From Desulfovibrio psychrotolerans (lineage in GTDB: Bacteria; Desulfobacterota; Desulfovibrionia; Desulfovibrionales; Desulfovibrionaceae), in the NCBI RefSeq assembly GCF_013340305.1, contig NZ_BLVP01000008.1, forward strand, positions 753,719 to 817,718: a stretch of DNA of 64,000 bases, in the 5' to 3' direction. Shown here one piece after another: positions 16,273-44,411 of this stretch. A program made the position numbers and the translations under genes. The stretch's first letter is position 1, and each line of letters begins with the position of its first letter. The notes beneath the pieces were generated by a model, which ran no database searches, was not told where the DNA came from, and saw only the letters and a program-made list of their open reading frames with translations.

Positions 16273-16274
16273 CC

Positions 16275-21854: not shown

Positions 21855-21855
21855 G

Positions 21856-28400: not shown

Positions 28401-29040
28401 CGCCCGATGCGGAGTTTCGGCAGAAGCACTGCTTTGCGCCGCATGGGGCCTGTTCCTTTCTGCCGGCTCCGGTCGCGCGGATGTACTTTTCGCCTCCATG
28501 ACCACGGCGTTGCCGCAGACGCAGCAGGCAGCGACGCAGACCGTGGGCATGTTCGGGCAGCCACTGCCCCTGCGGCTGCGGGTGCTGCCGCATTCCACCA
28601 TCTCTGCCTTGGCGGAATCTGTGGCGCAGGATATGGAGGACCGTTCGCCCGTTGCCCACATGCCGCTGCCCGCCGATGCGTGGGGAGACCTTGCTGTCAG
28701 CTCCGGGCCGGATCATCTGGTGCACTTTGGTGCGCCCCCGTTTCTTGGCGTTTCCGGCGGGTTGCGGCTGGAATCCGTGCGGATGCACGCCGGGGTGCCG
28801 CACGGCCTGTGCCTTTGGGCAGAGACGGACGGTATCGTGCGGTTCCGGTTCCGGTATGATTCGTCCGCCCATGCCCGGAAACAAGTGGAACGGATTGCGG
28901 AACATTGGCTCGGGCTGTTGCGCAGCGTCATAGAATTGCCGGAGTGCCCCGTAGCGGAAATGGGGCTTTTGGTGCCGGATGCTGCCCTGTGGGCGGCAAC
29001 GGCAGCAGGACGGCAGGCCTGCGTTCCGCAGGAACCGTGA
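22450..29040 (+). CDS. Non-ribosomal peptide synthetase, single adenylation domain, non-canonical architecture A - C - T(PCP) - E-like - terminal degenerate C
   Basis: A-domain core motifs: A3 IIFTSGSTGIPKGV, A5 YNAYGPTENAVC, A6 GELCLSGRSLAMGY, A7 YRTGDLVRW, A8 GRIGREVKVRGFRIDPGEVE, A10 NRSGKID. C domain with intact HHIVGDGQS. PCP (FFTAGGDSIKAISL). Domain with E-type signature (AHTSVDMVSWRVL). Terminal C-like domain whose HHxxxDG is replaced by PRLLLDD. Start chosen at the ATG at 22450 (MTQNRS); the ORF is open from 22246. Confidence 0.85.
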   Translation: MTQNRSLPLPPEQKAEPAAVLADDTGADCRDADSAPLTPEERAQLNVWEYGPVRPVPHGGIPALFARQVRMAPHAPALLVDGALLSYAELDAASNRVAHALLHILGGVNGNGIQPAPAVHALHVSSHSANDNGNGNGNGTGSTISSGPMNTPESADMAELAVPDRVVGVLTGRNPHLAVVALGIWKAGAVYLPLDASLPAPRLRRMMEDARVRVLFDARTDADLRARPVPDCLLPDPEKSTPEFSCAHLNMDAALLCPDHAVHRAADSAACAYIIFTSGSTGIPKGVAVSHGAFVNMICGQIAVLGITPADRLLAFALPSFDASLSEMFMALGAGASLYPVSRDIIGDTESFSAFVDSHGLTGATLPPAYLRLFQRRDFPTLRFLLTAGEAPVREDALHYAARLAYYNAYGPTENAVCATMTRIIPHGSGMENENSGSIGSNGSGRNGGSGGAEGETCAGRVPLPMGKPLPNMGTHVLGPDLAPVPPGQPGELCLSGRSLAMGYVNRPDLNAASFILCPALQNRRIYRTGDLVRWNAAGELEYLGRIGREVKVRGFRIDPGEVECALDELPDVLQCAVAAHRLPDDMGGSTALHGFLVMRGEKALPSPVMLREWLLRTLPDYMVPSGWTQLHRLPLNRSGKIDYAALAAQAAATGVDCSVPSDFSSQAAPAQKPEAAAHKSEIPGQPAAERTTPEMPTGRVLPMSFSQRQYWILHQSEASAASSNMSFVVEFSCTPGAEQALEERLRAAFGAIMDRHESLRTSFSMVDGAPMQIIHPHIPFTPDLRDLSDSLTPDEDAQDLCVELLQTPLDITQPPPLRGLLIRLSGRVWLAVSLHHIVGDGQSVGIVGHELLACMEGRALPAVEGQYQDFVHAEQQYLASPVMQTDRRYWLDVLSQGQPRADIATEYERPAFRRGRGEICRVALSGTQVADFCRRDSLPGSLFMRIVACVAMLLRSRADGDTITMGIPVSVRHKGSFGQVVGNFIVPQPLVVPVRAQEGFATVLNSSIQAVAGAMEHCMYPPVRLYGDLDVVRDPARGALFDVMITTPQLSLTVPVQGNVHGYEDDEGMASPDSRPDSQSDSRPDSQPDSQPDSQPDSQPDSQPDTLPQDMPEKLADDPRGEMSLSLGKGRFISLYSGLARFDLTFVTAILPDGGLMLVLEYDSDLYSRSTAKAMLESLRAMIVEGAYGQPVLNGENASDALSAGAGEADACNASGQASAAASSAGTEELRRTMLAVWRTALGRPELHERDNFFTAGGDSIKAISLCGELRKHGIPLSPAQLFRFPTVAEAAEACRAAEATPEALPDAWPVPVSPVAHIFIPEQTDFLRKFVQSLMVEVRRDEDPADEDRLETAFRAVVRHHPAFRYRLRLHDGAAFELLGSPRVYWKRIACADADVAETALREGRSIREWIDPCKGYNVGACLFSTPQAVLLLVVSAHTSVDMVSWRVLSDDLETAYRRGPGALVSGAAGFDQWLRALYRHAESGATEGELEFWRNMVSGRIARLPLVVAQDEQWTMQEAQVSPDVVDRLEALAVGNGLDMRSILLATLARSLVPVLEGDAVLLTFEGHGRQVSYSTLDVIRTVGWFTAAYPFRLPLDAHSPLSALAGNLLQHMRQVPDGGTGFCVLCHALKRLEKPAASFSFNYHGRQTVERRDGFGLSGHNPDLLTDMVSTRHSDPVNLSLVILEGTLHIVAQFPGGLLDADWVRAMLDRWRANLGEMARSAPASGAFPVHAAGQNVFPVLPLQAALVESLNESGQATARETAAGTVQISFRLRGNRCAAMLPDVWRQVVQRHEFLRAVFVQKGEGSVKQRLMPEAAHAVTVSDGLGLEPEVQDAELQALLGFERKRPFLPSGPLMRVLFMRHGDDCCTMAWTFPRLLLDDRSVGILLHDLCALYHARLHNESAVLPCTVSLAGALSGLPLQNEDDTQAFWRRYLAGTQGYVPLLPRNGEMADAVAVAGETKEFTAELLQVEITALRALAARCGVSAEALLCAAWGLFLSAGSGRADVLFASMTTALPQTQQAATQTVGMFGQPLPLRLRVLPHSTISALAESVAQDMEDRSPVAHMPLPADAWGDLAVSSGPDHLVHFGAPPFLGVSGGLRLESVRMHAGVPHGLCLWAETDGIVRFRFRYDSSAHARKQVERIAEHWLGLLRSVIELPECPVAEMGLLVPDAALWAATAAGRQACVPQEP
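25667..25775 (+). repeat. In-frame 12-bp tandem repeat (CCGGACAGCCAG x ~9) encoding (PDSQ/PDSR)n inside the NRPS C domain
   Basis: Protein segment PDSRPDSQSDSRPDSQPDSQPDSQPDSQPDSQPDT. Near-perfect nucleotide repeats visible directly. Confidence 0.85.
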
Positions 29041-29206
29041 TTTTGGTAACATGGCGGACTTTTGTGCAAATCGGCACTCCGCCAGTTGTATTTTACAGCA
29101 AGGAAGGGCACTATCACTCCTTCGTGGAGCGTGCCGGTCTTTCTGCCCGGGTGCCGGGGTTTCCGGCCATGAACATTGCAATCGCGACTTCCGGTAACGG
29201 GGGCTG

Positions 29207-30898
29207 TTGGGACTCATGCTGCAACTGAAACAATCGTATTTTCTCACGCTGCTCCGCGATAACGCCGGTGCGGAAGGGCGGCGGCTCGTGGGTGCCTGCC
29301 TTGGCGCGGGTATCATGCAGGGGCTTTGCGTCTTTACCGTGCTGCAGGGGCTGGAGCAGCTTTCTTCCGATGAGGGCATAAAGTTCCACACCTTTGCGGC
29401 ATTTCTTCTGTGCCTCGGGCTGTTCTATTATCTTTTCCGCTACATAACCGGGCAATCGGCCCTCATAGCCCTGCGCGGCGTTATGGAATGGCGCATGCGC
29501 ATTGCCACCAAGCTGCGCGGCATATCGCTGCTGGAATATGCGCGGCTGGACAGGGGGCAGGTGCAGTCCGTGCTGCTGGACGGGCGCGAGATGGTGGTGG
29601 AAGCGGCGCGTATGCTCATGGCCTCCGCAGCCAACTCCGTGATGATCCTGGTGGCTATTTGCAAGATGTTCACGGTTTCGTTTGTGGGCACTGTGGGCGT
29701 GCTGCTGCTTATGGGGCTGGGGCTTGGCATCTTTCTGCGGCTGGTGGGCAGCGTGCAGGCACTTATGGAGCCTGCGCGCAGGGCAGATCTGGAGTTTTCA
29801 TCCGGTCTGCGCGACCTGCATGACGGCCTGTTGCAACTGAAGCTGCACAAGCCCAAGACCACAGACCTGTTCAGCGGGCAGATTCTGCAGGGACTCAATA
29901 AAGCCTCCGTGGCCCGTGAGGCCATGGAACGCAGGCATGCCCTAGGCATTTCCTTCTTTGCCATGTTCAACCTGCTCATTCTGGGGCTTATCCTGTTCCT
30001 CATGCCGGGGTTTCTGGGGCTGGATGCCGAATCCACCTCCACTCTGCTGGTGCTCACCATGTTCTGTCTCAGTCCTCTGCTCAGTCTGGTGGGTTTTGTG
30101 CCGCTGATGGGCAAGGTGGAAATGAGCCTGCACGAACTCACGGACATGGAGCGCCATCTGGATGCGGTGACCGAACCCTTTGAACGGGAAGGCGTGGCTG
30201 CTAGCTGGCAGCACCCGGACCCCAAGGTACCCGCTTTTGAATCGCTTCTCCTGCGCGATGTGCGGTTTGAGTATGTGGACAGGCACGGGGCGCGCCAGTT
30301 CGGGGTGCATGTGCCCGAGTTTTCCCTGCAGCGTGGTGAGATGGTCTTCATCCGCGGGGGCAACGGTTCGGGAAAATCCACCTTCATGAACGTGCTGGCA
30401 GGGCTGTATCAGCCCCAGTCCGGCGAGTTCATCTTGAACGGCATGCCTGTGGAAGACGTGGGCATGGAGTCTTACCGCAACCTTTTTGCCGTGCTGCCTG
30501 CGGACTTCCATCTTTTCAGCCGTCCGCTGGGAGTGGATGCCTCCGCCCGCCGTACGCAAAAAATGCTGGAAAAGATGCGCTTGGATACCAAGGTGCGCAT
30601 CACCGAGGATGGTACTTTTTCCACGCTGGATTTGTCCGCCGGGCAGCGCAAACGGCTTGCCCTTGTATGCGCCATGCTTGAGGACAGGGATGTATACCTG
30701 CTGGACGAGGTTGCGGCGGACTTTGATCCGGAATTCAGGCGTTTCTTCTATGAGGAATTTTTGCCGGAACTGCGCGGGCAGGGCGCGACCATTCTCGCCA
30801 TCTCCCATGATGACCGCTTCTTCCATGTGGCGGACAGGGTGCTGTGCATGCGCGATGGAACCTTTGCGGAGAACGGGCAGCAGGAGGGATCGGCATGA
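29207..30898 (+). CDS. Cyclic-peptide-type ABC exporter, fused permease plus ATPase (SyrD/cyclic peptide transporter family)
   Basis: 563 aa. N-terminal 6-TM domain. C-terminal NBD (Walker A GGNGSGKST, signature LSAGQRKRLAL, Walker B VYLLDEVAADFD). Positioned directly after the NRPS. Confidence 0.8.
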   Translation: MGLMLQLKQSYFLTLLRDNAGAEGRRLVGACLGAGIMQGLCVFTVLQGLEQLSSDEGIKFHTFAAFLLCLGLFYYLFRYITGQSALIALRGVMEWRMRIATKLRGISLLEYARLDRGQVQSVLLDGREMVVEAARMLMASAANSVMILVAICKMFTVSFVGTVGVLLLMGLGLGIFLRLVGSVQALMEPARRADLEFSSGLRDLHDGLLQLKLHKPKTTDLFSGQILQGLNKASVAREAMERRHALGISFFAMFNLLILGLILFLMPGFLGLDAESTSTLLVLTMFCLSPLLSLVGFVPLMGKVEMSLHELTDMERHLDAVTEPFEREGVAASWQHPDPKVPAFESLLLRDVRFEYVDRHGARQFGVHVPEFSLQRGEMVFIRGGNGSGKSTFMNVLAGLYQPQSGEFILNGMPVEDVGMESYRNLFAVLPADFHLFSRPLGVDASARRTQKMLEKMRLDTKVRITEDGTFSTLDLSAGQRKRLALVCAMLEDRDVYLLDEVAADFDPEFRRFFYEEFLPELRGQGATILAISHDDRFFHVADRVLCMRDGTFAENGQQEGSA

Positions 30899-31395
30899 GA
30901 GGGGTAATTCTCTGCTACGCCGTGCTGGCCAGCTTTCTGACCATCTGTCTGGTCTGCTTTCTGGCGGTTGCGCCTGCTCAGGCGCGCAAGCTGGAACAGC
31001 GTACCAGTATTCAGGAAGTGCGCGAACTGTATGAAAATGTGAACAAAACGCGTGCCTCGGAAGTCAACGCACGGGAAAACGATGCCATTATCCGCCAGCG
31101 GCTGGAATGCTATGCGGAGTATGCCGACTACACCCCCCGTCTGCGTGTCTGCAATAATGCCTATGTAAAAGAACTGGTCAGCCAGGCACGGGATAAGGTG
31201 CGCTCGCGCCCCGATCTCGGGTGGTTTGTGGTAAATATCAACCTGTGCCCCGTCATGTACAACCTGTGCACGGGGCAGACGCAGAATGACAGGGAGCGTT
31301 GCATCCTCTTTGAGCGTCAGTGCGTGGATTATACGCTGGACAGATTCTGGCGCGGCGCGGCTCAGTACACCCATCAACAATATCGGTCCGAGTGA
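30895..31395 (+). CDS. Small secreted cysteine-rich hypothetical protein (signal peptide, 6 Cys)
   Basis: Start ATG overlaps the ABC exporter stop (ATGA). Signal peptide MRGVILCYAVLASFLTICLVCFLAVAPAQA. Mature ~136 aa with 6 Cys (ECYAEY, RVCNN, NLCPV, NLCTG, ERCIL, RQCVD). Confidence 0.5.
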   Translation: MRGVILCYAVLASFLTICLVCFLAVAPAQARKLEQRTSIQEVRELYENVNKTRASEVNARENDAIIRQRLECYAEYADYTPRLRVCNNAYVKELVSQARDKVRSRPDLGWFVVNINLCPVMYNLCTGQTQNDRERCILFERQCVDYTLDRFWRGAAQYTHQQYRSE

Positions 31396-32603
31396 TGATG
31401 AAAACGCTGTATATCAAGATACGCAATCTGCTGAGGCGGTACCGGATGTTCCTCGTATCCACGGGACTGCTCTTCGTGCTGTTTTTTGTCTTCTTCTGGC
31501 CGGATATCATCATAAGCATCCGGCCGGGTGAACTGGGTGTGTACTACTCCCGCCTGTTCGGCGGAACCAGAATGGACAGGACGTACGAGGAAGGGGTGCA
31601 CTTCATTCCTCCGTGGGACATCCTTTATGTGTATGACGTGCGCATTCAGGAAGAAACGCAGGAAGTGGAAGTGCTCACGCTGGACGGTCTGACGGTCAAG
31701 GTCCATGTTTCGCTGCGTTATCAGATCATCCGCGACAGACTGCCCGTTCTGCATCAGCAGATCGGACCGGAGTATAAGCGCAAGGTCATTCTTCCCATCA
31801 TGACATCGGCGGTACGCCAGACCATAGGCAGCTACAGGCCCGATGCGCTGTATTCCACGGCGCGGCAGGAACTGCAGGATAAAATGCTCGTGGATGCGGT
31901 GGAAGAACTGGGCCGCCTGCCCCTCATCGTGCATGGGTTTGTGGTGAAGAAAATCAGCCTGCCGGAAGTGCTCAGAGACGCCATTGTGGACAAGCTGGTG
32001 GCCGAACAGAAGTATCTGCGCTATTACTATATCCTGCTCGAAGAACGGGAAGAGGCAAAGCGCAAGGCCATAGAAGGGCAGGGTATCCGTTTCTACCAAT
32101 CGCTGGTCAACGAAAACATGACCGAGAACTACCTGCGCTATGAAGGCATTAAGGCAACGCATAAGCTTGCCGCGTCAGAGAACGCCAAGGTGGTGGTCGT
32201 GGGAAGCGGCAAGGATGGTTTGCCCATTATCCTGAATACGCAGGATACGCCGCGGATTCCGGATATGACGAACGCAACCCGCGAGGCGAGGGAGCGGCAG
32301 GATAAATTCGGGCGCAGACAGGCAACCCCGGCGGCATCGGAAAGCAACTCCACCGCAGCTGACTCGGCAGCGGGCAATGCATCCGCAAGAGGTGTTGTAG
32401 GAGGCGGTTCCGCACCCAACATGCGCGAAGAAGGCGGATGGAAGCAGTGGCAACTGCGCGAGCCGGAATTGCTTGAGTTTATGAAAAAACTGGATGCCAC
32501 ACTGCTGAACCCGAACAGGCAGGCGCCCGGTGCGTCCGGTTCGCCCGGTGCGTACGGTTCACAGGGTGACGAGAATGGCAATAAGGGGCAAGGCAGGCGA
32601 TAG
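31395..32603 (+). CDS. SPFH/band-7 (prohibitin/stomatin/HflC-like) membrane protein
   Basis: Start overlaps the previous stop (TGATG). N-terminal TM (FLVSTGLLFVLFFVFFW). SPFH core (VYYSRLFGG...EGVHFIPPWDILYVYDVRIQE...LTLDGLTVKVHVSLRYQI). Coiled-coil. Gly/Ala-rich tail. Confidence 0.75.
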   Translation: MMKTLYIKIRNLLRRYRMFLVSTGLLFVLFFVFFWPDIIISIRPGELGVYYSRLFGGTRMDRTYEEGVHFIPPWDILYVYDVRIQEETQEVEVLTLDGLTVKVHVSLRYQIIRDRLPVLHQQIGPEYKRKVILPIMTSAVRQTIGSYRPDALYSTARQELQDKMLVDAVEELGRLPLIVHGFVVKKISLPEVLRDAIVDKLVAEQKYLRYYYILLEEREEAKRKAIEGQGIRFYQSLVNENMTENYLRYEGIKATHKLAASENAKVVVVGSGKDGLPIILNTQDTPRIPDMTNATREARERQDKFGRRQATPAASESNSTAADSAAGNASARGVVGGGSAPNMREEGGWKQWQLREPELLEFMKKLDATLLNPNRQAPGASGSPGAYGSQGDENGNKGQGRR

Positions 32604-32717
32604 CCGCCTGTGCAGGGGGGCCTTTTCCGCAGACTGATCAGGCGTGACAGTGCGGAGCGGGCACAGGTGTTCGCCGAGTTTATGCCGTGGCCGGACCAAA
32701 CGCAACGGAGTGAGATC

Positions 32718-32999
32718 ATGGTTGTATTACTCTTTTTCCTTGTTGGAAGCATCATTGTCGGGTTTCTGGGAAGGTACTGCCGGTTCGGTTTCTGGGGGCA
32801 TTTCTTTGCCAGCGTGTTGCTTACGCCCGTGGTAGGTCTGCTGCTGGTGCTTGCGGCTGGACCGGGGTGCCGTGATCGGCGCGATGCCCATGCCACTTCT
32901 TCCCGGACCGGCTCGACAGACGGAACCCGGGCCGGAACCCGGGCCGGAACCGGAGCCGAAACTGAAGCCGGAGCGGGCACCGCAGGCGGCAATGTCTGA
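32718..32999 (+). CDS. Small 2-TM membrane protein with low-complexity Thr/Gly/Ala-rich tail (possible NfeD-like partner of the SPFH protein)
   Basis: GGAGTGAG RBS 6 nt upstream of the ATG at 32718. Sequence MVVLLFFLVGSIIVGFLGRY...VLLTPVVGLLLVLAAG. Tail encoded by a 12-bp tandem DNA repeat at ~32915-32955. Confidence 0.45.
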   Translation: MVVLLFFLVGSIIVGFLGRYCRFGFWGHFFASVLLTPVVGLLLVLAAGPGCRDRRDAHATSSRTGSTDGTRAGTRAGTGAETEAGAGTAGGNV

Positions 33000-33038
33000 G
33001 CGTGAAATACCGTTTTTCATTTGTCATCCGGGGTACGC

Positions 33039-34136
33039 ATGCCGCCTCATCTGAACATTGCCCTCTCCAGCGTTGTGTTACGGCTATTGGGCTGCCTCCT
33101 CATGCTGGGTGCACTGGCAGCCGCGTCCCCCGTCAAGGCGTCAGAAGCCGGGACGGGCGGAGAAAAAATCAGGCGCATCGGCTATCTGGAAGCCGGACAT
33201 TTCTGGCTGTTTGAACGCACCTTTCAGGCTTTCCGCGATGCCTTGCAGGAGCGCGGAATCCGTGCGGATTTTCCCGCAGACGCCCGGTTCAGCCCCGGAT
33301 GGGAGCCTGAAAACATGGCCCGCCTGCCGCAGGCTGCTGCGGCACTGATGCAACGGGATGACCTTGATCTTGTTGTAGGCATGGGAACGGCAGCCATGAA
33401 GGCCCTGCTGGCGGCCAATACCGGACAGACCCCGATCATGGGTATGGGCATGGCAGACCCCGTTGCGGCGGGCGTGGTGGCGGGGCCGGAAGATTCCGGT
33501 GCGGAGAATGTTACCTGCCATATCGTTGCAGACCGCTGGTCCACCATGTTCAGGGTATTCCACGACGTGGTGGGCTTCCGTACTCTGGGTATTCTGTATA
33601 ACGACAGCCCGGAAGGCCGGGTTTATGCCGCTCTGGATGACGCCCGCGCCGTGGCTTCGGAGCTGGGATTCGGCATTGCCGAATATGGCGGGCTTTCCTC
33701 TGCGGAAACAGAAGCGGAATGCCGTGCGGGGCTGGATGCCCTGCGGGCGCAGGGCATGGATGCCTTTTTCATTGGCCCGCTGAACTGTTTCGACTGGCAG
33801 ACCAGCAACGTGGCATCGCTGCTGGAACTGCTGAACGGCTGGAACATTCCTACCTTTGCCCGCGATGGATCAGATTTTGTGCGGGCAGGGGCACTTATGG
33901 GCTTTTCCACATGGAATTTCGGTCCGTCAGGCACTTTTCTGGCGCGGCAGGCGGCGGCAGTCTTCAATGGCACCTCCCCCCGCGCCATTCCCATGCTGGA
34001 CAGGGTGGAGCCGACCATTGCCATTAATCTGGAAACCGCCGGACGCATCGGGTTTATCTTCCCTCTGGACGTGCTGGTGGTTTCCGATGAAATCCACGAG
34101 CGGATAACACTGCCTGCCGCAGGAAAGGAGCAGTAG
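33039..34136 (+). CDS. ABC-transporter-type periplasmic binding protein, COG2984/PF04392 family (paralog 2)
   Basis: Signal peptide (MPPHLNIALSSVVLRLLGCLLMLGALAAASPVKA). Shares the same conserved blocks as the 20122-21195 paralog. 3-bp gap before the sensor-MFS fusion gene. Confidence 0.65.
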   Translation: MPPHLNIALSSVVLRLLGCLLMLGALAAASPVKASEAGTGGEKIRRIGYLEAGHFWLFERTFQAFRDALQERGIRADFPADARFSPGWEPENMARLPQAAAALMQRDDLDLVVGMGTAAMKALLAANTGQTPIMGMGMADPVAAGVVAGPEDSGAENVTCHIVADRWSTMFRVFHDVVGFRTLGILYNDSPEGRVYAALDDARAVASELGFGIAEYGGLSSAETEAECRAGLDALRAQGMDAFFIGPLNCFDWQTSNVASLLELLNGWNIPTFARDGSDFVRAGALMGFSTWNFGPSGTFLARQAAAVFNGTSPRAIPMLDRVEPTIAINLETAGRIGFIFPLDVLVVSDEIHERITLPAAGKEQ

Positions 34137-34138
34137 CC

Positions 34139-36859
34139 GTGGAGATGGAAACCCCAACTTCTGCTGCTGTGTCGGGCTCCGTATCTAGCTCCGGACCTGA
34201 ACATCCCGCAGGACTTTTCCAGCTGCGTATGGGCATCGGGGTGCTGTGCCTCGGCGTGCTGGTTCTCACGCTCGGATTCAATGTGCTGCTTTCCGTGTCC
34301 ACGCTGGACAGGCTGGCAACGGCCTCGCTGCTTTCGGGCTATCGCGCTGCAGGCGAGCATGTGGCGCTGAGTATTGAACGCGGACTGCGATTCGGCAAAC
34401 CCCTTGCACAGTACGCGGGCATGGTGGAGATGCTGGATGACCTGCGTGACGGCGCAGGCAATATCCGCTCCGTTCAGGTGCTGGATGTCTCCGGGACACC
34501 GCTGTATTCCGTCGCGACAATTGAGGGCGGCAGGGACAGCATGCCCCCCGCAGACTCCGGCAGCGGGTATGCCGCAAAGGATGATGGCTCTCCCGGTGAC
34601 GGTACACGGACGTTTGATCGCGCAATGCTTGAAGCAGCCCGGAAGGGGGCGGCGGTAGATAACGGGGAAGACTTTCTTGCAAAGGCAGATGTCTACCGCA
34701 TTGTCATTCCGCTGCAATATCAGGGTATCGCGGGCGGGTTGGCGCTGGATATAGACAGGTCGCATGTGGATTCCGTCACCGATGGATTTTCCCGTTGGGC
34801 CGCCTTGCTGCTGGTGGTGGCGTGCGCGGCTGTGTGTGTGACGCTGGCGGGGTGGATATGGCTGCTCACCGCCACGCCCGAAGCCCGGGCCCGGCTCCAG
34901 AAATCCCTGTCCCTGCTGCTGCTTGTCCTCATCGGCGGCACGCAGCTTGCGTATTCCCTCGCTATGGTCACGCTGTTCGACTCGTTCATGGAACATGCCG
35001 TGCGTGAAAAGGTGGACATGGCGGCCCGGTTCATCAAGCGCGACTTTGAGTACATTATCCACAAGGGGGTGGATGTGCGCTCCATCCGCGGGGGAGAGGC
35101 CCTGCTTGCCCGCATTGTGGAGGCGCACGCCGAAGTGGCAGGTGCCGAGATGGTGCTGCCGGACGGGACAATGCTTGCCTCTGCCGGAGACATCACGCAG
35201 GGGGGCCATATTGTGGAGCGTTCTGTGGATGGTTACTGGCCAAGCCGTTTCCGGCAGCGCGAAGAGGCCATGCGCATACGCCTGCATGTGGACAATGCCC
35301 ATGTGGCGGCCGGGGTGCGCAGCCTGAGCGTGGACCTCGTCACCTCCTTCGTCATCAGCCTGCTGTTTCTCATGGAGCTTGCGCGGCTGCTGAGCATGGT
35401 GTCTGTGCGTTTTACCAGATCCATGCTTGCCGCAGAAGGGGATGCGGGGCAGACGACACGAAAGGTGACTGGCCGGGCGAAGGGGCGGACAATCGGCCGG
35501 ACAGCGGGAGTAACCGTTTGCACATCGCAGGCTCTGCGGGCCGCCGGTTTTTTGTTTTTTCTCGGTTACGACATGGGAATCTCGTTCATTCCGTTGCTGG
35601 CGCGTAATTTCAAGGCCCCGCTGTGGGGTTTTTCCGAACAGGTACAGGCCGGGCTGCCCATATCCGCAGAGATGATTTGCGCCGGTGTGGCTCTGCTGCT
35701 GGCTGGCATCCTCTCCGAGCGTTTCGGCTGGCGCATGGCGTTTGCGCTGGGAGCCGTGGCCGCCTCCGCAGGGCTGATAATGGGGTGGGCCGCCACCTCG
35801 TTGCCGGCCCTTATCGTGGCGCGCGGTGCTTCCGGCTTCGGCTTCGGGTTGGTGCTCATGGCCGTGCAGCTGGGAACGCTGGGAGATGAAAAGGCCGGTG
35901 CGGGCTTAGCGGGCGTTTTCGCGGGAATTTTTTCCGGCAGCATCTGTGGTTCCGCTGCCGGGGCCATGCTGGCGGAGCGGCTGGGGTTTGAAACGGTGTT
36001 TCTGGTGGCCGCCGTGCTGGTTCCCGTGTCCATTCTGGCGTTGTATGTAGGCGGTGGCTGGGCTTCCGGTTCTGTTCCGGAAAACTGCCCCGTGGGTAAG
36101 ACTGCTAAGGCAGAGAAGGCCGATAACGCCGGGCAGGATGACCTTTCCGTCCCTGCGGTACCACATGTCACCCCTGCGCCGGGAGCGGCCGGAGCCGCGC
36201 TCGCCTTTCTGCTCGACCCGCGCATGCTGTTCCTGCTCGCCATGGTGGGCATTCCCGCTTCTGTGTGTCTGACGGGATTCCTCTACTACCTGCTGCCGCT
36301 CGTGCTGAACGGTGCGCACGTGAGCCAGTCGGACATCGGCCGTATCTTCATGGTTTACGGGCTGTGCTTCATCACGGTGGGGCCCATGCTGGGCAGGCTG
36401 CTGGACAGGGCCCGGGACAAGGGGGCCTTTGCCATGCTCACGGGGGTGTTTTCCGGGGTTTCCCTGCTTGCCGCCGCTCTTTCTCTGGCGTTTCTTGATG
36501 TCATGCCCGCAGGGCATGAGGCAGAAGGTGCCGGAGCGGTGCAGGGGATGATGACACCTCAAGGCATCGCCATCATTGTGTTATCCGTCCTGCTCATCGG
36601 AGTGGCCCAGTGCCTTGCAGCTCCCGCAACCATTCTTTGCGTTACCTCGCTGGGGTCCGCGCGTCGGCTGGGGCGGGAAAAGGCGGCCAGTTTTTACCGG
36701 ACGCTGGAACGGATGGGGCAGGTGCTGGGGCCTATTCTTTTCGGCGTTGCGCTGGTGCGCATGGGGGCCGCACATACCCTGCTGGCCGTGGGGGCGGGCG
36801 TGTGCCTGCTCGCCATACTGTTCATGGTGGTATGGCGCATCAGCAGCCGGAAGGATTGA
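34139..36859 (+). CDS. Fusion protein: N-terminal membrane-anchored sensor-like module (~450 aa: TM, periplasmic domain, TM, cytoplasmic linker) joined to a C-terminal 12-TM MFS transporter
   Basis: Single 906-aa ORF with no internal stops. N-terminal part has TM1 (GIGVLCLGVLVLTLGFNVLL), a ~190-aa periplasmic segment, TM2 (WAALLLVVACAAVCVTLAGWIWLL) and a ~200-aa cytoplasmic region. C-terminal part has MFS features (GYDMGISFIPLLARNF, ...GFGFGLVLMAVQLG..., twelve hydrophobic spans). Confidence 0.6.
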   Translation: MEMETPTSAAVSGSVSSSGPEHPAGLFQLRMGIGVLCLGVLVLTLGFNVLLSVSTLDRLATASLLSGYRAAGEHVALSIERGLRFGKPLAQYAGMVEMLDDLRDGAGNIRSVQVLDVSGTPLYSVATIEGGRDSMPPADSGSGYAAKDDGSPGDGTRTFDRAMLEAARKGAAVDNGEDFLAKADVYRIVIPLQYQGIAGGLALDIDRSHVDSVTDGFSRWAALLLVVACAAVCVTLAGWIWLLTATPEARARLQKSLSLLLLVLIGGTQLAYSLAMVTLFDSFMEHAVREKVDMAARFIKRDFEYIIHKGVDVRSIRGGEALLARIVEAHAEVAGAEMVLPDGTMLASAGDITQGGHIVERSVDGYWPSRFRQREEAMRIRLHVDNAHVAAGVRSLSVDLVTSFVISLLFLMELARLLSMVSVRFTRSMLAAEGDAGQTTRKVTGRAKGRTIGRTAGVTVCTSQALRAAGFLFFLGYDMGISFIPLLARNFKAPLWGFSEQVQAGLPISAEMICAGVALLLAGILSERFGWRMAFALGAVAASAGLIMGWAATSLPALIVARGASGFGFGLVLMAVQLGTLGDEKAGAGLAGVFAGIFSGSICGSAAGAMLAERLGFETVFLVAAVLVPVSILALYVGGGWASGSVPENCPVGKTAKAEKADNAGQDDLSVPAVPHVTPAPGAAGAALAFLLDPRMLFLLAMVGIPASVCLTGFLYYLLPLVLNGAHVSQSDIGRIFMVYGLCFITVGPMLGRLLDRARDKGAFAMLTGVFSGVSLLAAALSLAFLDVMPAGHEAEGAGAVQGMMTPQGIAIIVLSVLLIGVAQCLAAPATILCVTSLGSARRLGREKAASFYRTLERMGQVLGPILFGVALVRMGAAHTLLAVGAGVCLLAILFMVVWRISSRKD

Positions 36860-37793
36860 GCAGGTCTTCCATCTCCGGCAGACAGGGGTCGTCCAGCCCC
36901 TGTGGCAGGTAGAGTGAGAGCAGTTGGCGGTAGTCGTCCATGTCTATGAGCCTGCCGCCGTTTTCAGCAAACTGCCTGAATTCTTCTTCTGTGGGGTAGC
37001 TGAAATACTGCTCCTGTGTCTTGTCCTGCGATGTGCCGGGCAGCCGTTCTTCCCGTTCCAGCACGGGCAGGTGGCGCAAAAACGCTTCTATGCCTGCAAA
37101 ATATGTCTGCACAAAATTCCAGAGCAGCGAACGGTCATACCGTATATCTGCCCAGCCCACGTCCACCACGTCGCCACTGTCTATGCCGGGGTCAATGTGG
37201 AAGACCGTGCAGCCTGAGCGGGCATGACGCATCTGCATGGCGCGAAAAGGGCCGCATAATCCCTGAATCTGAGGCAATACACCGGGGTGCATGCCATATA
37301 TGCCAAGGCGGGGAATGGAGATGATGTCTTCTCTGAAGATGAAGTCGTACCGGCAGGAGAGTATGACATCCGGGGCAAGGGCGCGCATGGCGGCGGCCGC
37401 TTCGGGCCTGCTGGCCCGGCCCCATAGTTCGACCGGAATGCCGAATTTTTTGGAAATTCCGGAAAATGTTTGGTATTCTGCAGTACTGCCTTCCGGGAAC
37501 CTGTCATCCAGATAGGGGTAAAACAGTTTCAGGGGCATATCCCGTTCATGATTGAGCAGGCATGCTGCCAGCAGGTTTGCCCGCTCCGCCTTGAGCACAT
37601 AGTCGGAGAGAACCACATGGACATTGTGGCGGGGAGCAAGCGCGCTCACAAGCCTGTTCAGAGCCAGATTTCCCGCAAGATCACGTTTGGTGCAGATGAC
37701 GATTTTCAAAGGGCCGCCATGGGGAGTCGTTGAAGCCTGAAAGGGGAACGCCGCGTCGGGGAGGGAAGATAGCACGGGCTGCGGCGGGAGCAC
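36840..37793 (-). CDS. Formyltransferase-family protein (PF00551-like; divergent, not canonical Fmt)
   Basis: 317 aa. Formyl-transferase catalytic region GIYGMHPGVLPQIQGLCGPFRAM (N-x-H-x-SLLP-type motif), aligned from memory to Fmt GCINVHGSLLPRWRGAAPI. Convergent with the MFS fusion gene and overlaps its 3' end by 20 bp. Confidence 0.5.
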   Translation of the reverse strand: MLPPQPVLSSLPDAAFPFQASTTPHGGPLKIVICTKRDLAGNLALNRLVSALAPRHNVHVVLSDYVLKAERANLLAACLLNHERDMPLKLFYPYLDDRFPEGSTAEYQTFSGISKKFGIPVELWGRASRPEAAAAMRALAPDVILSCRYDFIFREDIISIPRLGIYGMHPGVLPQIQGLCGPFRAMQMRHARSGCTVFHIDPGIDSGDVVDVGWADIRYDRSLLWNFVQTYFAGIEAFLRHLPVLEREERLPGTSQDKTQEQYFSYPTEEEFRQFAENGGRLIDMDDYRQLLSLYLPQGLDDPCLPEMEDLLNPSGC

Positions 37794-38088: not shown

Positions 38089-41000
38089 ATGGAGCAGTAT
38101 TCCGGGATACTTGTCGGGTTGGTGCAGAATGTGGCGCTTCTTCTGGCGGCGGCCCTGTTCTTTGATCTTTTTGCCTCGCGTTGGCGCAGGGGGGTGGGAC
38201 ACCTGCCCGCCAAGCTGTTCACGGGCTTCCTGCTCGGTGTTATCGGCATGGTGGTCATGCTTACGCCGTGGACCTTCACACCTGGCGTTATGTTCGATAC
38301 CCGTTCGGTGCTGATAGGTATAACCGGGCTGTTCTTCGGTACTATTCCTGTCCTTGTGACCATGGGCATGACGGCAGCACTGCGTCTGTATCAGGGCGGG
38401 GCTGGGGCAGTCATGGGTGTCAGCGTCATACTTACTTCCGGTATCATCGGCCTGCTGTGGAGATACCGCACCCGGCGGCTGGAAGGACTTTCATGGCCGC
38501 AGCTGTATATCTTCGGCCTGGCCATCCATATCGTCATGCTCATGCTCACGCTGACTCTTCCCGGCGACATCGCCTTGCGTGTGTTCTCCGGTATCTGGCT
38601 GCCTGTCCTGTTGATCTATCCCGTTGCCACAGCCCTGCTCGGCAGCCTTATGTCGCGCCGTCTCACCAGCGATGCCATGGAAGATTCGCTTTGTGCCAGC
38701 GAACTGCGCCACAGAATCATTTTTGAGAACAGCCCGCTGGGTATGATTCTGTTCGATTCCTCGGGCACCGTGGTGGATTGCAACGATAAGTTCGTGGAGC
38801 TTATGGGTTCATCCCGCGACAAGGTCATAGGCTTCAATACCGTGCGGCAAAGCTCGCCTGCCATGAGTGCCGCCCTGCAACGTGCCCTGAACGGTCAGCC
38901 GTCCACGTTTGAGGATGCCTACACCTCCGTTACGGGTGGCAGGCACCTGATTCTTCGCGTCATTTTCAATCCCGTGCGCCCGGGGGGTTCGCCCACAGAG
39001 GTCATCGCCACGCTGGAAGACATTACCGAACGCAGGCAGGCAGAGGAATCGCTGCGCGCCCGCGAGGCAGCCCTGAACAGCATATTCCGGGCCGCTCCCG
39101 TAGGCATAGGCGTGGTTGTGGACCGGGTTTTTGTTCGGGTCAATGACCGGCTGTGCGAGATGACAGGATACTCGCAGGAGGACTTGGTAGGCAGCAACGC
39201 CCGGATGCTCTATCCCGATGACGAAAGCTACCGTTACGTGGGGGATGAAAAGTACCGGCAGATACGGGAACGCGGAACGGGAACGGTGGAAACGCATTGG
39301 CGGCGCAAGGACGGTGGCATCATGGATGTGCTGCTCAGTTCCACCCCCATGAATCTTGCAGACTATTCGGTGGGGGTAACCTTTACGGCGCTGGATATCA
39401 CCGAACGCAAGCGGGGCGAAGAGATGTTGCGGGAGAGCGAGGCCCGTTTCCGCACGCTGCACAATGCCTCGTTCGGGGGCATAACTATCCATGATCATGG
39501 ACTTATTCTCGACTGTAATCAGGGGCTTGCGGATATTACCGGGTATACGGTGGATGAACTGGTGGGCATGGACGGCTTGCTGCTTATTGAAGAGTCCTGT
39601 CGGGGCGACGTGATGGAGAGGATTCGAGCCGGCTATGAAAAACCCTATGAATCACTTGGAGTGCGTAAGAACGGCGAGGTCTACCACATTCGCCTTGAAG
39701 CGCGGCAGATACCCTATAAAGGGCGGCAGGTCCGCGTGGTGGAATTCCGGGATATAACAGAACAGAAGCGGGCGGAAGAGGCCATCCGGCAGAGCGAGGA
39801 ACGCTTCCGCCTGATTATTGAAGATGTGGAGGTGGCTGTGCAGGGCTACGACAGCAACCTGCGGGTGATATACTGGAACAGGGCCAGCGAACGGCTTTAC
39901 GGCTATACCGATGAAGAGGCCATGGGGCGGTCTCTGTTGGAGTTGATCATACCGGAACCTATGAGGGATGGTGTGAAGGAGGCGGTAGAAAACTGGGTGC
40001 GCAACGGGGTGCCCATTCCGGCTGCGGAATTGGTGCTGCAGCATAAAGATGGGTCCGAGGTGCCCGTGTATTCTTCGCACGCCATCCAGCGCAGACCGGG
40101 CGGCGATATGGAACTGTTCTGCGTGGATGTGGACCTCTCCGACTTCCGCAAGATGCACACGGCACTGCTTGCAGCCAAGGAGCAGGCAGAGGCGGCAAGC
40201 CGCAGCAAGTCTGAATTTCTGGCCAACATGAGCCATGAACTGCGCACCCCGCTCAATGGCATTATGGGTATGCTGCAACTTATGGAGGCAACCCACCTTG
40301 ACGAGGAGCAGAGGGATTATGCCCGTGCGGCACTTGAATCATCCCGGCGTCTTACCCGCCTGCTCAGCGATATTCTGGACTTGTCGCGCATTGAGGCAGG
40401 CAAGATGGAACTCTACATGGAGCCGTTCGACCTGAGGGAGACGCTGCATTCCATGGAACTGCTGTTCCGCCCCAGTGCCAGCCAGTCCGGCAACCTTCTG
40501 GAATTCAGGATTTCAGAGGATTTTCCGCCCAGACTCATGGGAGATGTGGTCCGGCTGCAGCAGGTGATAAGCAATCTGGTGGGTAACGCCCTCAAGTTTA
40601 CAAAGGGCGGGTCCGTAACTGTGGAAGCATATCCCCTGCAGGCCATAAAGCCCCATGAGTACAGGGTGCTTTTTGCCATTGCGGATACGGGAGTGGGTAT
40701 TCCGGACGATAAACAGAACGAGTTGTTTCATCCCTTTACGCAGGTGGATGGAAGCATGGCCCGCCAGCATCAGGGCGCGGGGCTGGGGCTTTCCATCTGC
40801 AAGCGTCTGGTGGCCCTCATGGGAGGGAGTATCTCCATAGCCAGTGAAGAAGGGGTGGGAACCACCGTGCACTTCTGTGTCACGCTGGGGCGGAGCGATG
40901 ACGCCGTCCTGGTGCCGGAGGAACTGGAATCTGCCGAAAGCGCATTGCCTGAGCGGCCGTTGCGTATTCTGCTGGCAGAGGATGAACGGGTGAACCGCTC

Positions 41001-41328
41001 GCTCGTTATTAAGCTCATGGAAAAGCACGGGCACGCTGTTACTGCCGTGGAGGATGGGCAGCAAGCCGTGCGTGCGCTGGCGGCAGAGGAGTTTGATGTG
41101 GTGCTTATGGACGTGCAGATGCCTGTAATGGACGGCGTGCAGGCCACGCGGGCCATACGCGAAGGGACCGCCGGAAAGGACAGAAAGAACGTGCCCATCA
41201 TCGCGCTTACCGCGCATGCCATGTCAGGTGACCGTGAACGCCTGCTGGAAGCAGGCGTGGACGAGTATCTGGCCAAACCTTTCGATGTGGGCACGCTGCT
41301 CCGTATTCTACGCCGCTCCATGCGTTAA
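38089..41328 (+). CDS. Hybrid sensor histidine kinase/response regulator with N-terminal 5TM LytS-type receptor domain and multiple PAS domains
   Basis: 1079 aa. 5TMR-LYT-like N-terminus. At least 4 PAS/PAC modules. HisKA ([11 protein letters not shown]). HATPase_c (DTGVGI...GAGLGLSI). C-terminal REC (LLAEDERVN...[14 protein letters not shown]...KPF). Confidence 0.85.
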
Positions 41329-41385
41329 GGCGGTGGCGCATATCTTGTGAACGGTTGGGGCTAAGCCCTGCTGAAGGGCGGCAGG

Positions 41386-43911
41386 CTACTGCACCGGAGG
41401 CACAAGCGAGCACTCCACCCTGTTTCGTCCGTTTTGCTTGGCCCGGTAAAGTGCCATATCCGACTGCTTGAGCAGTGTTTCCAGACTGGAGCAGGCTTCA
41501 GAATATTCGGCAACCCCCAGACTTACCGTAAATCGCACGGTGGTGCCGTCTTCCAACTCCACGCCGCTGTCCTGCATGGCAAGGCGTATGCGTTCCGCCA
41601 CCAGCCGGCCGCCCTCAATATCTGTTTCCGGAAGCCCGACGGCGAACTCCTCGCCCCCCAAACGTCCAAGGATATCCACCTCGCGCAGCACCGACCGGGC
41701 TGCTTCGGCAATGGCTTTAAGCACAATATCCCCTGCATCGTGTCCGTAGGTGTCGTTAACAGATTTAAATTTATCCGCATCAAACATGATGAGCGAGAAG
41801 GGCGAGTCATACCGGCTGCAACGCTCCAGTTCCCGCTCTGTCTGCTCCATGAACCACCGGCGGTTGGCAAGGCCCGTCAGCGCGTCCGTGGTTGCCAGAT
41901 TGTGCAGTTGTTCCTGTAGCATGCGCGATTCAGTAACATCCCAGTTCACGCCTATCATGTGTTCCGGCTGGCCTTGCGCGTCTCGGCGGGTCAGTGCGGC
42001 TGCCCGCACATGGCGTACGGAACCATCCGGCCAGATGATGCGGAACTCCCACTCCCACGGGCTGGCACTTCTGCCCGCCTCCTGTATGGCATTGTGGGCG
42101 GCTGTTATGTCCGCCGGGTGCACACGGCCTTTCCACGCTTCGTACAGGCCGGAGAATTCTCCGCCACGAATTTTGTAAATGGCAAGCATCTGCTCATCCC
42201 ATATCAGGGAGTCGTCTTTCAGGTTCCATTCCCATACGCCTATGCCACCCGCGCGTGATGCAAGTTCCAGCCTGTCTGAAAAGGCATGCAGTTCCTGTTC
42301 CGCCTTCTTGCGCTGGGTTATGTCGCGCAGGCTGCCCACAGCATAATAGGAATTGCCCAGCCTGAAAGCCGCAACGGAACGTTCCACGGGGAAGAGCTCC
42401 CCGTCTTTTTTAACGGCCATGAACTCCATCACCGAGCCGACTACAGGCCCCTGGCCGGTGGCGGCAAAGTGCTTAAGCCCCTTCCACGCCTTTTCCCTGT
42501 CGCTTTCCTGCGTGACAAGCAGATGCAGGCTTCTGCCCAATGCCTCTTTGCGGGTCCAGCCGAACATTCTTTCTGCAGCGGGACTCCAGAACATGATGTG
42601 ATCATCGGAGTCGATCATGATCAGGGCATCGTGCGATGCCTCCGCCATGGCCCGCATCTGTGCCTCATTGGCCTTCAGCGCATCTTCTATGAGTTTGCGG
42701 TCGGTTATGTCCTGAATGGTTCCCGTGGAGCGTATGGGGGTACCGGTGGCGTCGCATTCGGTTATTCCGCGTTCCTGCACGTGGCGTACCGTACCGTCGG
42801 CAAGGATTATACGGTGGTCCACGGAATAGCTGCCGCACGAACGCAGACTTTCCGCAAACTGGTTTTCCACCAGTTCCCGGTCGTCGGGATGGACCATGCC
42901 CAGAAAGCCTCTGAGTGATGGGGTGTGCTCTTCCCTGTCTGTGCCGAATATCCGGAACGTTTCATCCGACCACCACAGGTCGCCGGTGCGCATGTCAGCG
43001 TCCCAGCTGCCTAGATGGGACAGAGCCTGCGCGTGGTTCAGGCTTTCGCGTGTCTGCTCGATAAGGTGGTTTCTGCGGGCGGCCCTGTATGCTGCAAAAC
43101 CGGACACAAGAAAGAGCAGCAGCACCAGACCGTGTATCATAAAGGCAAGGGGCGGGGTGTGCGACCAGCCATGTTCCGGCGTGCCTGCCAGCACCCAGTT
43201 TCCGGAAGGAAACGTAACCGGCATGCGGACGGCATTCATTTTGGGGTCGAACAGATCCTGCTGTCCCCAGAAGACCGGTCCTTCCTGCCCGTATTCATCC
43301 ACTGCGCGTAGAGCCAGTTTCAGGGTGGTATCACGCATGCCCGCCATATCGTACAGGCGGTCCGCGTCAATGACGGAAGAGACAACTCCCCAGAAATGTC
43401 TCTGCCCTTTCTGGTACACAAAAACCGGAGCCCGTCCGATTATGCCGGTGCCGCCCTGCACCAGTTGCAAGGGGCCGTCCACGATCAGTTCCCCTGTACG
43501 CTCCGTACGGCTGGCCGTTTCCCACTGCTCCGGTAGGTCGCGGTAGCTCACGCCAAGAACTGCCTCGTTGCCTTCCAGCGGGTAGACATAGCGCATTACA
43601 TAATCGGGAGCCGCCCCCAGATTGCGGATAACGGGGGAATCCTGCAGCGTTTCCCGCGCGTATTGCGTAAATATCTGCGGAGTAAGCCCGGGAGTTACAG
43701 AGATAAAGTTCGCCATGCCCTGCACCAGCAGCAGGTTTGCGGTAATTTCCTTTTCGAGGCGGGCCCGCAGGGTGGCCAGCCTCAGAGAAGCATCCACTCT
43801 CTGGTTATTCAGGTGCTGGTTGAGCATCTGGTAATACAATAATCCGTCCAGCCCCGCGCACAGGATTGCGATAAGGAGGAGGGGGCGAAGATAGTGTTTT
43901 TTCATGGCCAT
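41386..43911 (-). CDS. CHASE-PAS-PAS-GGDEF diguanylate cyclase (active-site GGEEF)
   Basis: Start placed at MAMKK (43911); the ORF is open from 44028. N-terminal TM plus CHASE domain. Two or three PAS/PAC modules. C-terminal GGDEF domain with RLGGEEFAV. Confidence 0.8.
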   Translation of the reverse strand: MAMKKHYLRPLLLIAILCAGLDGLLYYQMLNQHLNNQRVDASLRLATLRARLEKEITANLLLVQGMANFISVTPGLTPQIFTQYARETLQDSPVIRNLGAAPDYVMRYVYPLEGNEAVLGVSYRDLPEQWETASRTERTGELIVDGPLQLVQGGTGIIGRAPVFVYQKGQRHFWGVVSSVIDADRLYDMAGMRDTTLKLALRAVDEYGQEGPVFWGQQDLFDPKMNAVRMPVTFPSGNWVLAGTPEHGWSHTPPLAFMIHGLVLLLFLVSGFAAYRAARRNHLIEQTRESLNHAQALSHLGSWDADMRTGDLWWSDETFRIFGTDREEHTPSLRGFLGMVHPDDRELVENQFAESLRSCGSYSVDHRIILADGTVRHVQERGITECDATGTPIRSTGTIQDITDRKLIEDALKANEAQMRAMAEASHDALIMIDSDDHIMFWSPAAERMFGWTRKEALGRSLHLLVTQESDREKAWKGLKHFAATGQGPVVGSVMEFMAVKKDGELFPVERSVAAFRLGNSYYAVGSLRDITQRKKAEQELHAFSDRLELASRAGGIGVWEWNLKDDSLIWDEQMLAIYKIRGGEFSGLYEAWKGRVHPADITAAHNAIQEAGRSASPWEWEFRIIWPDGSVRHVRAAALTRRDAQGQPEHMIGVNWDVTESRMLQEQLHNLATTDALTGLANRRWFMEQTERELERCSRYDSPFSLIMFDADKFKSVNDTYGHDAGDIVLKAIAEAARSVLREVDILGRLGGEEFAVGLPETDIEGGRLVAERIRLAMQDSGVELEDGTTVRFTVSLGVAEYSEACSSLETLLKQSDMALYRAKQNGRNRVECSLVPPVQ

Positions 43912-44411
43912 GCCGGGCTGCGGGTTAAAGCGGATCTGCCTGAATCGTATGAATCCTTTATGGAGGAAAAACACCCTTTCGGGCTGTGTCTTACCATGGA
44001 AAGAACAGGGCAGGCGGGAGTCCGGCAACAGGGAACGTGTTACTCGTTCTGCTGCAGCTCATTGGATTCCTTATACTCCATCCCTTTGCATTGTATATCA
44101 TTCGGCGTTCAACCGTCTAGCTGTAAGGTTATTGATCGTGTCCGTGCGGGGGAGCAGCATGTCCGCCGGAATATCCGTTTCGTGCGCATAGCGGATATTC
44201 TCCCGCAAGGCTTGCGGAAGATGCGGGCAGCGGGTAGATTACATTCTTGTCCGGGACTACGCACGGCATCCAAGCCTGCCCCGAGGCATGTCTGTCCGTC
44301 GCAGAGCATTACCCGTTTGCGGCAACTTCCCTTGTCACCAACGTCTACCCTCCGGTCGCGGCATCCGCTGTTTGCCGTACTTGCGAACGGAGAATATGGA
44401 GATAGCGTACC

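Follow-up and report, generated by a model that had tools for sequence, protein, structure and literature searches.

Sensor units in which a PDC domain lies between two transmembrane (TM) helices are well described in histidine kinases such as WalK, CitA and PhoR, where the TM-PDC-TM unit is normally assembled as a homodimer. In the binding-protein-dependent sensors LuxP-LuxQ, TorT-TorS and ChvE-VirA the receiver is a kinase, and two PAS-like domains are found in one periplasmic stretch bounded by two TM helices. To our knowledge, PDC sensor modules of the kinase type pass their signal to kinases, cyclases or chemoreceptors, and transporters of the major facilitator superfamily (MFS) operate without the help of periplasmic binding proteins. 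We analyzed a stretch of 64,000 nucleotides (hereafter the window) from Desulfovibrio psychrotolerans, contig NZ_BLVP01000008.1, and concentrated on one gene whose product joins these elements: a PDC-like sensor module is followed by an MFS transporter domain in a single chain, and the gene is tied to that of an orphan periplasmic substrate-binding protein (SBP), referred to as SBP2. Coordinates of the gene, of the parts of its product and of its neighbors are given in Table 1.

Compared with the PDC/sCache sensors of kinases (WalK, CitA, DcuS, PhoR, KinD), the units of the fusion protein share the fold, as judged from structural models. Unlike them, the protein carries no HAMP, DHp, catalytic, GGDEF or MCP output, a transporter taking that place; its two units are covalently joined by duplication and fall outside every Pfam Cache/PAS model. 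The locus recalls LuxP-LuxQ, TorT-TorS and ChvE-VirA in that the gene of a type-I SBP lies beside that of a membrane protein whose periplasmic part comprises two PAS/PDC-like domains, and by analogy docking of the loaded SBP on these domains would be the likely mode for the fusion protein too. It differs in that each domain is flanked by a TM pair of its own and in that the receiver is an MFS domain. With the TRAP (DctPQM) and TTT (TctABC) systems it has in common an SBP gene tightly linked to the gene of a secondary transporter, without ABC components. Here, however, the membrane part is an MFS domain resembling antiporters, with no DctQM or TctAB, the SBP belongs to PF04392 and is neither a DctP nor a TctC, and the protein also has a sensor-like docking module.

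The fusion is genuine and conserved, and is not an artefact. The open reading frame (ORF) starts with GTG, 8 nt downstream of an AGGAG ribosome-binding site, and at the junction between the two parts (~35450-35540) only its own frame is open, the other two being interrupted by stops. In related loci from Desulfovibrionaceae genomes and metagenomes of different species, a single ORF of 753-885 amino acids (aa) spans the junction in all 14 cases where the N-terminal part of the gene is present, and the homologues align end to end. The same 906-aa protein is called on a 59-kb contig of an independent Logan assembly (run DRR218224), which is identical to the window over 6721/6721 nt. A sequencing frameshift or misassembly joining a membrane sensor gene to an MFS permease gene was considered and is in practice ruled out by these single ORFs, by the two-part architecture of 131 of the 150 best representatives of the family (see below) and by the identical independent assembly. 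Nothing was found in favor of such an artefact, whose probability is negligible; the one soft spot is the linker at aa ~439-467, which is of low complexity and poorly conserved. The sequence-only reading, made before this analysis, had held that the ORF was continuous over the junction and had proposed a search for the same fusion elsewhere; the first point is borne out, and the fusion was found in the 14 related loci and in a wider family.

Hydropathy places four TM segments in the N-terminal ~440 aa (~aa 32-54, 220-243, 257-280 and 398-420) and two large loops between them (aa 58-214 and 281-390). The short loop at aa 248-255 and the linker at aa 425-467, the latter with eight lysine or arginine residues, are both rich in these residues; they are therefore assigned to the cytoplasm and the large loops to the periplasm, in agreement with the N-in start required by the MFS domain. 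The four-TM layout is common to both AlphaFold models (aa 1-463 and full length). Aligned to each other with hhalign, the two units are homologous (probability 98.3%, E 1.9e-14), so that the module corresponds to (TM-domain-TM) x 2 and derives from an internal tandem duplication. The sequence-only reading had described a single TM-periplasmic loop-TM-linker arrangement, which has to be replaced by these four helices and two duplicated domains. With the 12 helices of the MFS domain, the whole protein has 16 TM helices in the inner membrane. Unit 1 is marked by the conserved motif IERGLRFGKPL..YAGM and carries a lineage-specific disordered insert (~aa 129-177); unit 2 contains the conserved motif RDFEYxxHKGVD, the clade motif YWPSRFRQ and an invariant D302. 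The linker is modelled with a predicted local distance difference test (pLDDT) below 50, is gapped in the alignment, and varies in length and sequence among homologues.

The fold was examined on an AlphaFold model of aa 1-463 built from a 28-sequence alignment (pLDDT 85.2, predicted template modelling score 0.78). Each modelled unit consists of a TM helix running into a long helix, a short helix, a sheet of 4-5 strands, and a return helix which becomes the next TM segment. As modelled, the module thus has the long N-terminal helix and the central antiparallel sheet flanked by helices of a PDC fold, and hydropathy, positive-inside charge and modelled helices agree in placing the PDC-like domains outside the cytoplasm, between two TM helices. 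Foldseek matched the module to WalK, KinD and PhoR, WalK being the closest. The figures of the fold comparison were 12.9 for Tlp3, 12.1 for KinD, 11.9 for TlpC, 11.3 and 11.1 for CitA, 10.2 for DctB and 9.2 for PhoR. By sequence there are only matches below threshold: DcuS/PhoR (E 0.35-0.9) and 3lif for the module, dCache_1 (E 7e-4) and ArlS_N (E 2e-5) in single relatives, the last two below gathering thresholds. The question raised earlier, whether residues 1-450 are Cache-, CHASE- or HAMP-like, thus receives a divided answer: a PDC/sCache-like fold is indicated by the model, and Pfam detects neither a curated sensor family nor a HAMP-like linker in the protein.

The N-terminal module defines a large family. 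Its profile, searched against 1.84 billion representative proteins, retrieved 576 representatives with E<=1e-3, 315 of which reached E<=1e-10, i.e. at least 576 clusters at 50% identity, ranging from Desulfovibrionaceae to Clostridia. Searches with the single sequence or with an alignment of close relatives returned close orthologues only, and a diverse alignment added only one distant clade. Module and MFS domain occur together in 131 of the best 150 matches; the remaining 19 are almost all <=457 aa long and are therefore likely fragments. No kinase, GGDEF or other signalling output was found by Pfam in six of these 19 MFS-less relatives, nor in nine of the longer relatives having both parts. 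The fusion protein of the window is likewise devoid of Pfam transmitter domains (HisKA plus HATPase_c, MCP signal, GGDEF/EAL), and its sole Pfam match is MFS_1, which agrees with the earlier view that an MFS permease stands where a kinase or GGDEF output would be expected. The database label of these proteins is just "MFS transporter", and we found no description of the architecture, nor of the product of the Desulfovibrio cassette presented below, in the literature searched. The family is thus large, has no annotation beyond MFS, and is encoded near an orphan PF04392 gene wherever there is enough flanking sequence.

Some members are longer. P0016 (1176 aa) and P0019 (1240 aa) carry the whole four-TM module twice before the MFS domain, i.e. 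eight extra TM helices and four PDC-like domains. These longer homologues were also considered as possible natural fusions with the SBP ("Rosetta stone" proteins); this was rejected, the additional N-terminal part of P0016 and P0019 being a second module and BLASTP against SBP2 giving nothing. ORFs in three loci (L035, L038 and L039, 1389-1428 aa) and P0075 (1394 aa) have an N-terminal extension of ~560 aa, for which Pfam gives no significant match in P0075.

To characterize the link with the binding protein we consider the window and then the wider family. SBP2 matches PF04392 with 46.1 bits (cutoff 25.9), has an N-terminal hydrophobic stretch ending in ...AAASPVKA, and has 6hni (5e-12), 3lkv and 3lft as relatives in the PDB. 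Only 2 nt separate its TAG stop from the downstream GTG of the fusion gene, so the PF04392-type gene reported directly upstream by the sequence-only reading is indeed there. In all Desulfovibrionaceae loci with upstream flank, the SBP2 orthologue ends <=~10 nt from the fusion start or overlaps it. In a relative from Clostridia (Marinisporobacter), whose module is only ~15-24% identical, the PF04392 and fusion genes share 8 nt. A metagenome scan with a seven-sequence alignment, seeded with a clade other than that of the window, returned 80 loci. Of 77 loci overall, 55 have a PF04392-like gene no more than 3.2 kb away from the fusion gene, and so do all 30 of the loci that extend 3.2 kb or more in both directions. 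Close to the fusion gene such genes number 1.86 per 10 kb, compared with 0.05 further out, a 35-fold enrichment, and all 53 candidate SBP ORFs submitted to Pfam from these loci match PF04392.

The SBP gene is placed directly upstream, one gene upstream or convergent downstream; since the arrangement differs between loci, the linkage has been preserved through rearrangements. These results, which extend across phyla, support the functional tie to the binding protein that had been proposed from the letters of the window, and the partnership of the fusion protein with a PF04392 binding protein is well supported by this genomic evidence. The SBPs appear as orphans: no ABC-importer permease or ATPase is among the recurrent neighbors in the 80 metagenome loci, and in the cassette a cognate ABC importer for SBP2 is absent, the sole ABC protein being an exporter-type half transporter (TIGR01194). 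L-Trp, L-Tyr and L-Phe are the ligands of the solved or characterized PF04392 proteins, which function as import receptors (PMC10443332).

The MFS domain was the only part recognized by Pfam (MFS_1, PF07690, 79.5 bits vs a cutoff of 33.4, over aa 469-782 plus a second stretch), and the NCBIfam scan of the fusion protein added nothing specific. In the full-length AlphaFold model (pLDDT 65.8) 12 helices lie between aa 450 and 903, in a 6+6 arrangement; the extra length with respect to relatives of ~800 aa is made of low-confidence inserts (aa 1-22, 129-177, 640-685 and 787-805). Residue conservation was assessed on 130 full-length family members. Motif A is kept between TM2 and TM3 as G523..[D/E]527 [R/K]528 x G530 W531, the window having E527 and R528, and the motif-C-like glycines of TM5 are kept as G600xxxG604xxxG608[A/G]. 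TM2 bears a conserved "LPISxEM" (LPISAEM in the window), with P507 present in 130/130 and E511 in 105/130. An aspartate in TM1, considered as a family-wide cation-binding signature, occurs in only 43/130 and was rejected as such, being clade-specific at most. The PDB sequences nearest to the MFS family profile are NorA (E 1.9e-11), YajR, VMAT1/2 and EmrB, with E-values from 1e-11 to 1e-7. Judged by these sequence relations, the domain appears nearest to drug/amine:H+ antiporters and leans weakly to efflux. Like the DHA1-type antiporters NorA, YajR and VMAT, the fusion protein has 12 TM helices in its MFS part, motif A and, without the proline, a motif-C-like TM5; unlike them it has a ~440-aa four-TM sensor module and a partner binding protein, and the similarity, obtained with a family profile (E ~1e-11), is remote.

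The fusion gene belongs to a nine-gene cassette (19990..37793 in the window), found in the same order beside non-ribosomal peptide synthetase (NRPS) genes in ~15 Desulfovibrionaceae loci. The genes are ordered as follows: SBP1, DUF697, ABC exporter, ~159-aa protein, SPFH/Band_7, small membrane protein, SBP2, fusion, and formyltransferase on the reverse strand. In related loci the cassette is adjoined by NRPS, thioesterase, phosphopantetheinyl transferase and radical-SAM genes. The NRPS gene of the window sits between the DUF697 and ABC exporter genes; in related loci, NRPS genes are found past the formyltransferase instead. SBP1 is ~37-43% identical to SBP2 orthologues and gives in the window only a weak Peripla_BP_6 match. 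Orthologues of the ABC exporter within the cassette are 63-71% identical. The formyltransferase gene occupies the same position in every Desulfovibrionaceae-type locus and is a conserved third partner in the clade of the window. The sequence-only reading had recognized the PF04392 neighbor; the surrounding cassette, with its NRPS, ABC exporter, SPFH and formyltransferase genes, had escaped it.

Table 1. Coordinates in the window of the fusion gene, of the parts of its product and of the associated genes (TMD, transmembrane domain; NBD, nucleotide-binding domain)
Feature	Position	Strand	Basis
Fusion gene, 906 aa: tandem sensor-like module, then MFS transporter domain	34139..36859	+	ORF call, Pfam, alignment, models
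Unit 1, aa 23-246: TM1, long helix, periplasmic PDC/sCache-like alpha/beta domain, TM2	34205..34876	+	hhalign, AlphaFold
Unit 2, aa 247-438: TM3, long helix, second PDC/sCache-like domain, TM4	34877..35452	+	hhalign, AlphaFold
Lysine/arginine-rich cytoplasmic linker, ~aa 439-467	35453..35539	+	low confidence
12-TM MFS domain, aa 468-906, 6+6, disordered central loop aa 640-685	35540..36856	+	Pfam MFS_1, AlphaFold
SBP2, PF04392 (ABC_sub_bind) periplasmic binding protein, hydrophobic signal-like N-terminus	33021..34136	+	Pfam E 5e-12
SBP1, second PF04392-type binding protein, first cassette gene	19990..21195	+	orthologues PF04392
DUF697 membrane protein	21243..21854	+	PF05128 E 1.2e-11, position conserved
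NRPS, 2264 aa, adenylation, condensation and carrier domains	22246..29040	+	Pfam, NCBIfam
Fused TMD-NBD ABC exporter, cyclic-peptide-export family	29207..30898	+	TIGR01194 286.9 bits vs 286.2 cutoff; ABC_tran
~159-183-aa protein	30844..31395	+	order conserved
SPFH/Band_7 protein	31320..32603	+	Band_7 E 4e-28
Small membrane protein	32610..32999	+	order conserved
Formyltransferase-fold gene (PF00551), convergent, overlaps fusion 3' end by 20 nt	36840..37793	-	Pfam, NCBIfam

Recurrent neighbors were also analyzed in the other clades. After the SBP gene, the commonest one encodes a ~237-aa protein (18-21 loci, L020-L085; 12318..13022 in the Marinisporobacter locus L016). It has no Pfam match, and its profile retrieves from the PDB nearly only GNAT N-acetyltransferases (best E 6.7e-4); by this profile evidence it is a divergent GNAT-like N-acyltransferase, standing in place of the formyltransferase of the window's clade. 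The gene of an N-acyl or N-formyl transferase is thus a frequent third partner of the fusion and SBP genes. The Blt-BltD system of B. subtilis is likewise a pump/acetyltransferase operon, and the frequent N-acyltransferase neighbor is a point of likeness with it. Genes resembling those of diaminopimelate (DAP) epimerase lie near family members in 15 loci and alanine-racemase-like genes in 13 (examples at L053 4766..5896, L086 8431..9498 and L088 8468..9850), and an MltC-like lytic transglycosylase is also present in some of these loci. The epimerase, racemase and transglycosylase neighbors hint at D-amino-acid or cell-wall-peptide substrates. Beside the members of one clade, a gene for a dCache_2-HAMP-SpoIIE membrane sensor (PP2C phosphatase) recurs in 25 metagenome loci (e.g. 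L026 1070..3091); it suggests a signalling connection, which is absent from the clade of the window.

The interpretation that we favor, which seems to us plausible though somewhat short of probable, is that transport by the fusion protein is controlled by its SBP. Ligand-loaded SBP2 would dock on the two periplasmic PDC-like domains, in a mode modelled on LuxP-LuxQ or on YycH/YycI acting on WalK, the module serving as the covalent counterpart of a sensor-kinase dimer. Docking would move the TM4 helix, and the movement would be relayed across the short cytoplasmic linker to the first helix (TM1) of the MFS domain; transport would then be controlled by how much SBP ligand the periplasm contains. 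Both the gating and the direction of transport are what we infer here, and the direction is the weakest step. Because the fusion unit stands within an NRPS cassette together with a peptide-type ABC exporter and a formyltransferase, its most likely job in this genome is to pump out, in a regulated manner, an amine-bearing metabolite or precursor related to the NRPS. Several observations weigh against SBP-controlled efflux. In the linker joining TM4 to the MFS domain, conservation is poor and the model has low confidence, which is not expected of a rigid element that transmits a signal. Neither PDC-like domain has a significant Pfam Cache/PAS match, and nothing is found by Pfam or NCBIfam in aa 1-460. 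The resemblance to DHA-type antiporters is remote, the proline of motif C (GxxxGPxxGG) is not kept in TM5, and the TM1 aspartate is confined to a minority of members. In some loci with one short flank (e.g. L035, L047) no SBP gene is within reach. Finally, the gene linkage fits delivery of a substrate by the SBP for uptake equally well as gating, and the known role of PF04392 proteins as import receptors favors uptake (PMC10443332).

Uptake by an SBP-dependent MFS transporter is accordingly the alternative to be weighed most carefully, although we consider it rather unlikely. SBP2 would capture an amino-acid-like substrate, dock on the tandem PDC-like platform and release the substrate into the outward-open MFS domain; cytoplasmic N-formylation, N-acylation or racemization would follow, possibly feeding the NRPS. 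The obligate link to an SBP family whose solved members are aromatic amino acid import receptors fits this proposal, as do the orphan state of the SBPs, with no ABC-importer permease or ATPase recurrent nearby, the cytoplasmic amino-acid-modifying enzymes among the recurrent neighbors (GNAT-like, DAP-epimerase-like, alanine-racemase-like, formyltransferase), and the apparent translational coupling of the SBP and transporter genes, as in importer operons. It is opposed by the nearest solved MFS relatives, which are antiporters or exporters with no symporters among them, by the absence of any SBP-dependent MFS transporter from the literature searched, and by the export flavor of the rest of the window's cassette (the TIGR01194 exporter, with an RND pump just upstream). 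It is improbable that the protein does not pump but takes part in signalling as a co-sensor, the PDC module and SBP sensing the ligand and the MFS domain acting as scaffold or relay to a separate partner, for which the dCache-HAMP-SpoIIE phosphatase would be a candidate, as in UhpC/UhpB or DctA/DcuS. The recurrence of the phosphatase gene, the abundance of sensor kinases and GGDEF proteins directly downstream in the window, and the closest fold match, WalK, a sensor under accessory-protein control, speak for such a role. Against it, the transport-linked motifs of the MFS domain are conserved (motif A, P507, E511), which argues for an active transporter, the SpoIIE neighbor is missing from the window's clade, and the Desulfovibrionaceae cassette has no conserved regulator dedicated to it. 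The fusion protein does resemble UhpC-UhpB, DctA-DcuS, BceAB-BceS and the yeast proteins Snf3/Rgt2 in that sensing and transport are coupled in one membrane complex. In those pairs and transceptors, however, a transporter-like protein informs a separate kinase or a signalling tail, whereas here a kinase-type sensor module lies upstream of the transporter and there is no kinase. We give an equally small chance to an ordinary efflux pump of a biosynthetic gene cluster, whose N-terminal domains would be structural only (oligomerization, SPFH microdomain or periplasmic adaptor contact), the SBP serving otherwise. MFS exporters are indeed frequent in NRPS clusters, SPFH/Band_7 genes lie near family members in two distant clades, and the database label says nothing more than transporter. 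Yet the SBP linkage persists across phyla and in several arrangements (adjacent, one gene away, convergent), which makes chance or an unrelated function of the SBP unlikely; most family members lie outside NRPS clusters; and the sensor fold and conserved apex motifs are kept at ~20% overall identity.

Returning to control or feeding by the SBP, the protein is in itself a combination of known kinds, which could represent a new class if SBP dependence holds. Beside TRAP and TTT there would then be a third, hitherto unrecognized class of secondary transporters that depend on a binding protein, in which an MFS domain is fed or switched by an orphan PF04392 SBP via a built-in pseudo-dimeric sensor platform, a proposition that we regard as doubtful at this stage. 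If it is true, the protein would be a bacterial "transceptor", receptor and transporter in one polypeptide. Gating or feeding of the transporter by the SBP would couple extracellular sensing directly to transport in a new way, without phosphorelay or transcription, and would explain what some of the PF04392 binding proteins without an ABC partner are for. The family would also offer a compact model for the readout of piston or scissor movements in sensor TM helices, the readout being transport. In gut and sediment Desulfovibrionaceae, the presence of the fusion in an NRPS cassette flags an uncharacterized metabolite, either secreted or scavenged.

Several other observations concern the cassette and its surroundings. 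A JGI name mentioning YcjF prompted us to compare the DUF697 protein of the cassette to the N-terminal module; homology was rejected (hhalign probability 0.1%). In the window, the gene ahead of the SPFH/Band_7 gene, that of the ~159-183-aa protein, encodes a small membrane protein, and the two ORFs overlap by ~75 nt as listed. In the Marinisporobacter locus (L016 13219..15323), an NfeD_TM gene and a Band_7/flotillin gene form a pair near the sensor-MFS gene; the occurrence of SPFH/Band_7 near the fusion gene in two distant clades hints at a connection with membrane microdomains. Immediately upstream of the cassette, at 14935..19559, are the genes of an RND efflux pair, an HlyD-type adaptor and an AcrB-type pump. 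In L018, the closest well-flanked relative (61% identity), OEP-MFP-RND genes are found directly downstream of the cassette instead, and a phage-type integrase gene (1264..2457) lies ~0.7 kb upstream of its first gene, so the cassette may be mobile. The regions 38089..44028 and 12356..14338 of the window are dense in signalling genes, among them those of a multi-PAS hybrid kinase of the 5TMR-LYT type, of a CHASE-PAS-GGDEF protein encoded on the other strand and, upstream, of a PAS kinase; none of these is conserved beside the cassette in related loci. Further along, two CofH/MqnC-type radical-SAM genes followed by VitK2_biosynth (49537..52714) correspond to the futalosine pathway of menaquinone, an ordinary metabolic function unrelated to the fusion gene.

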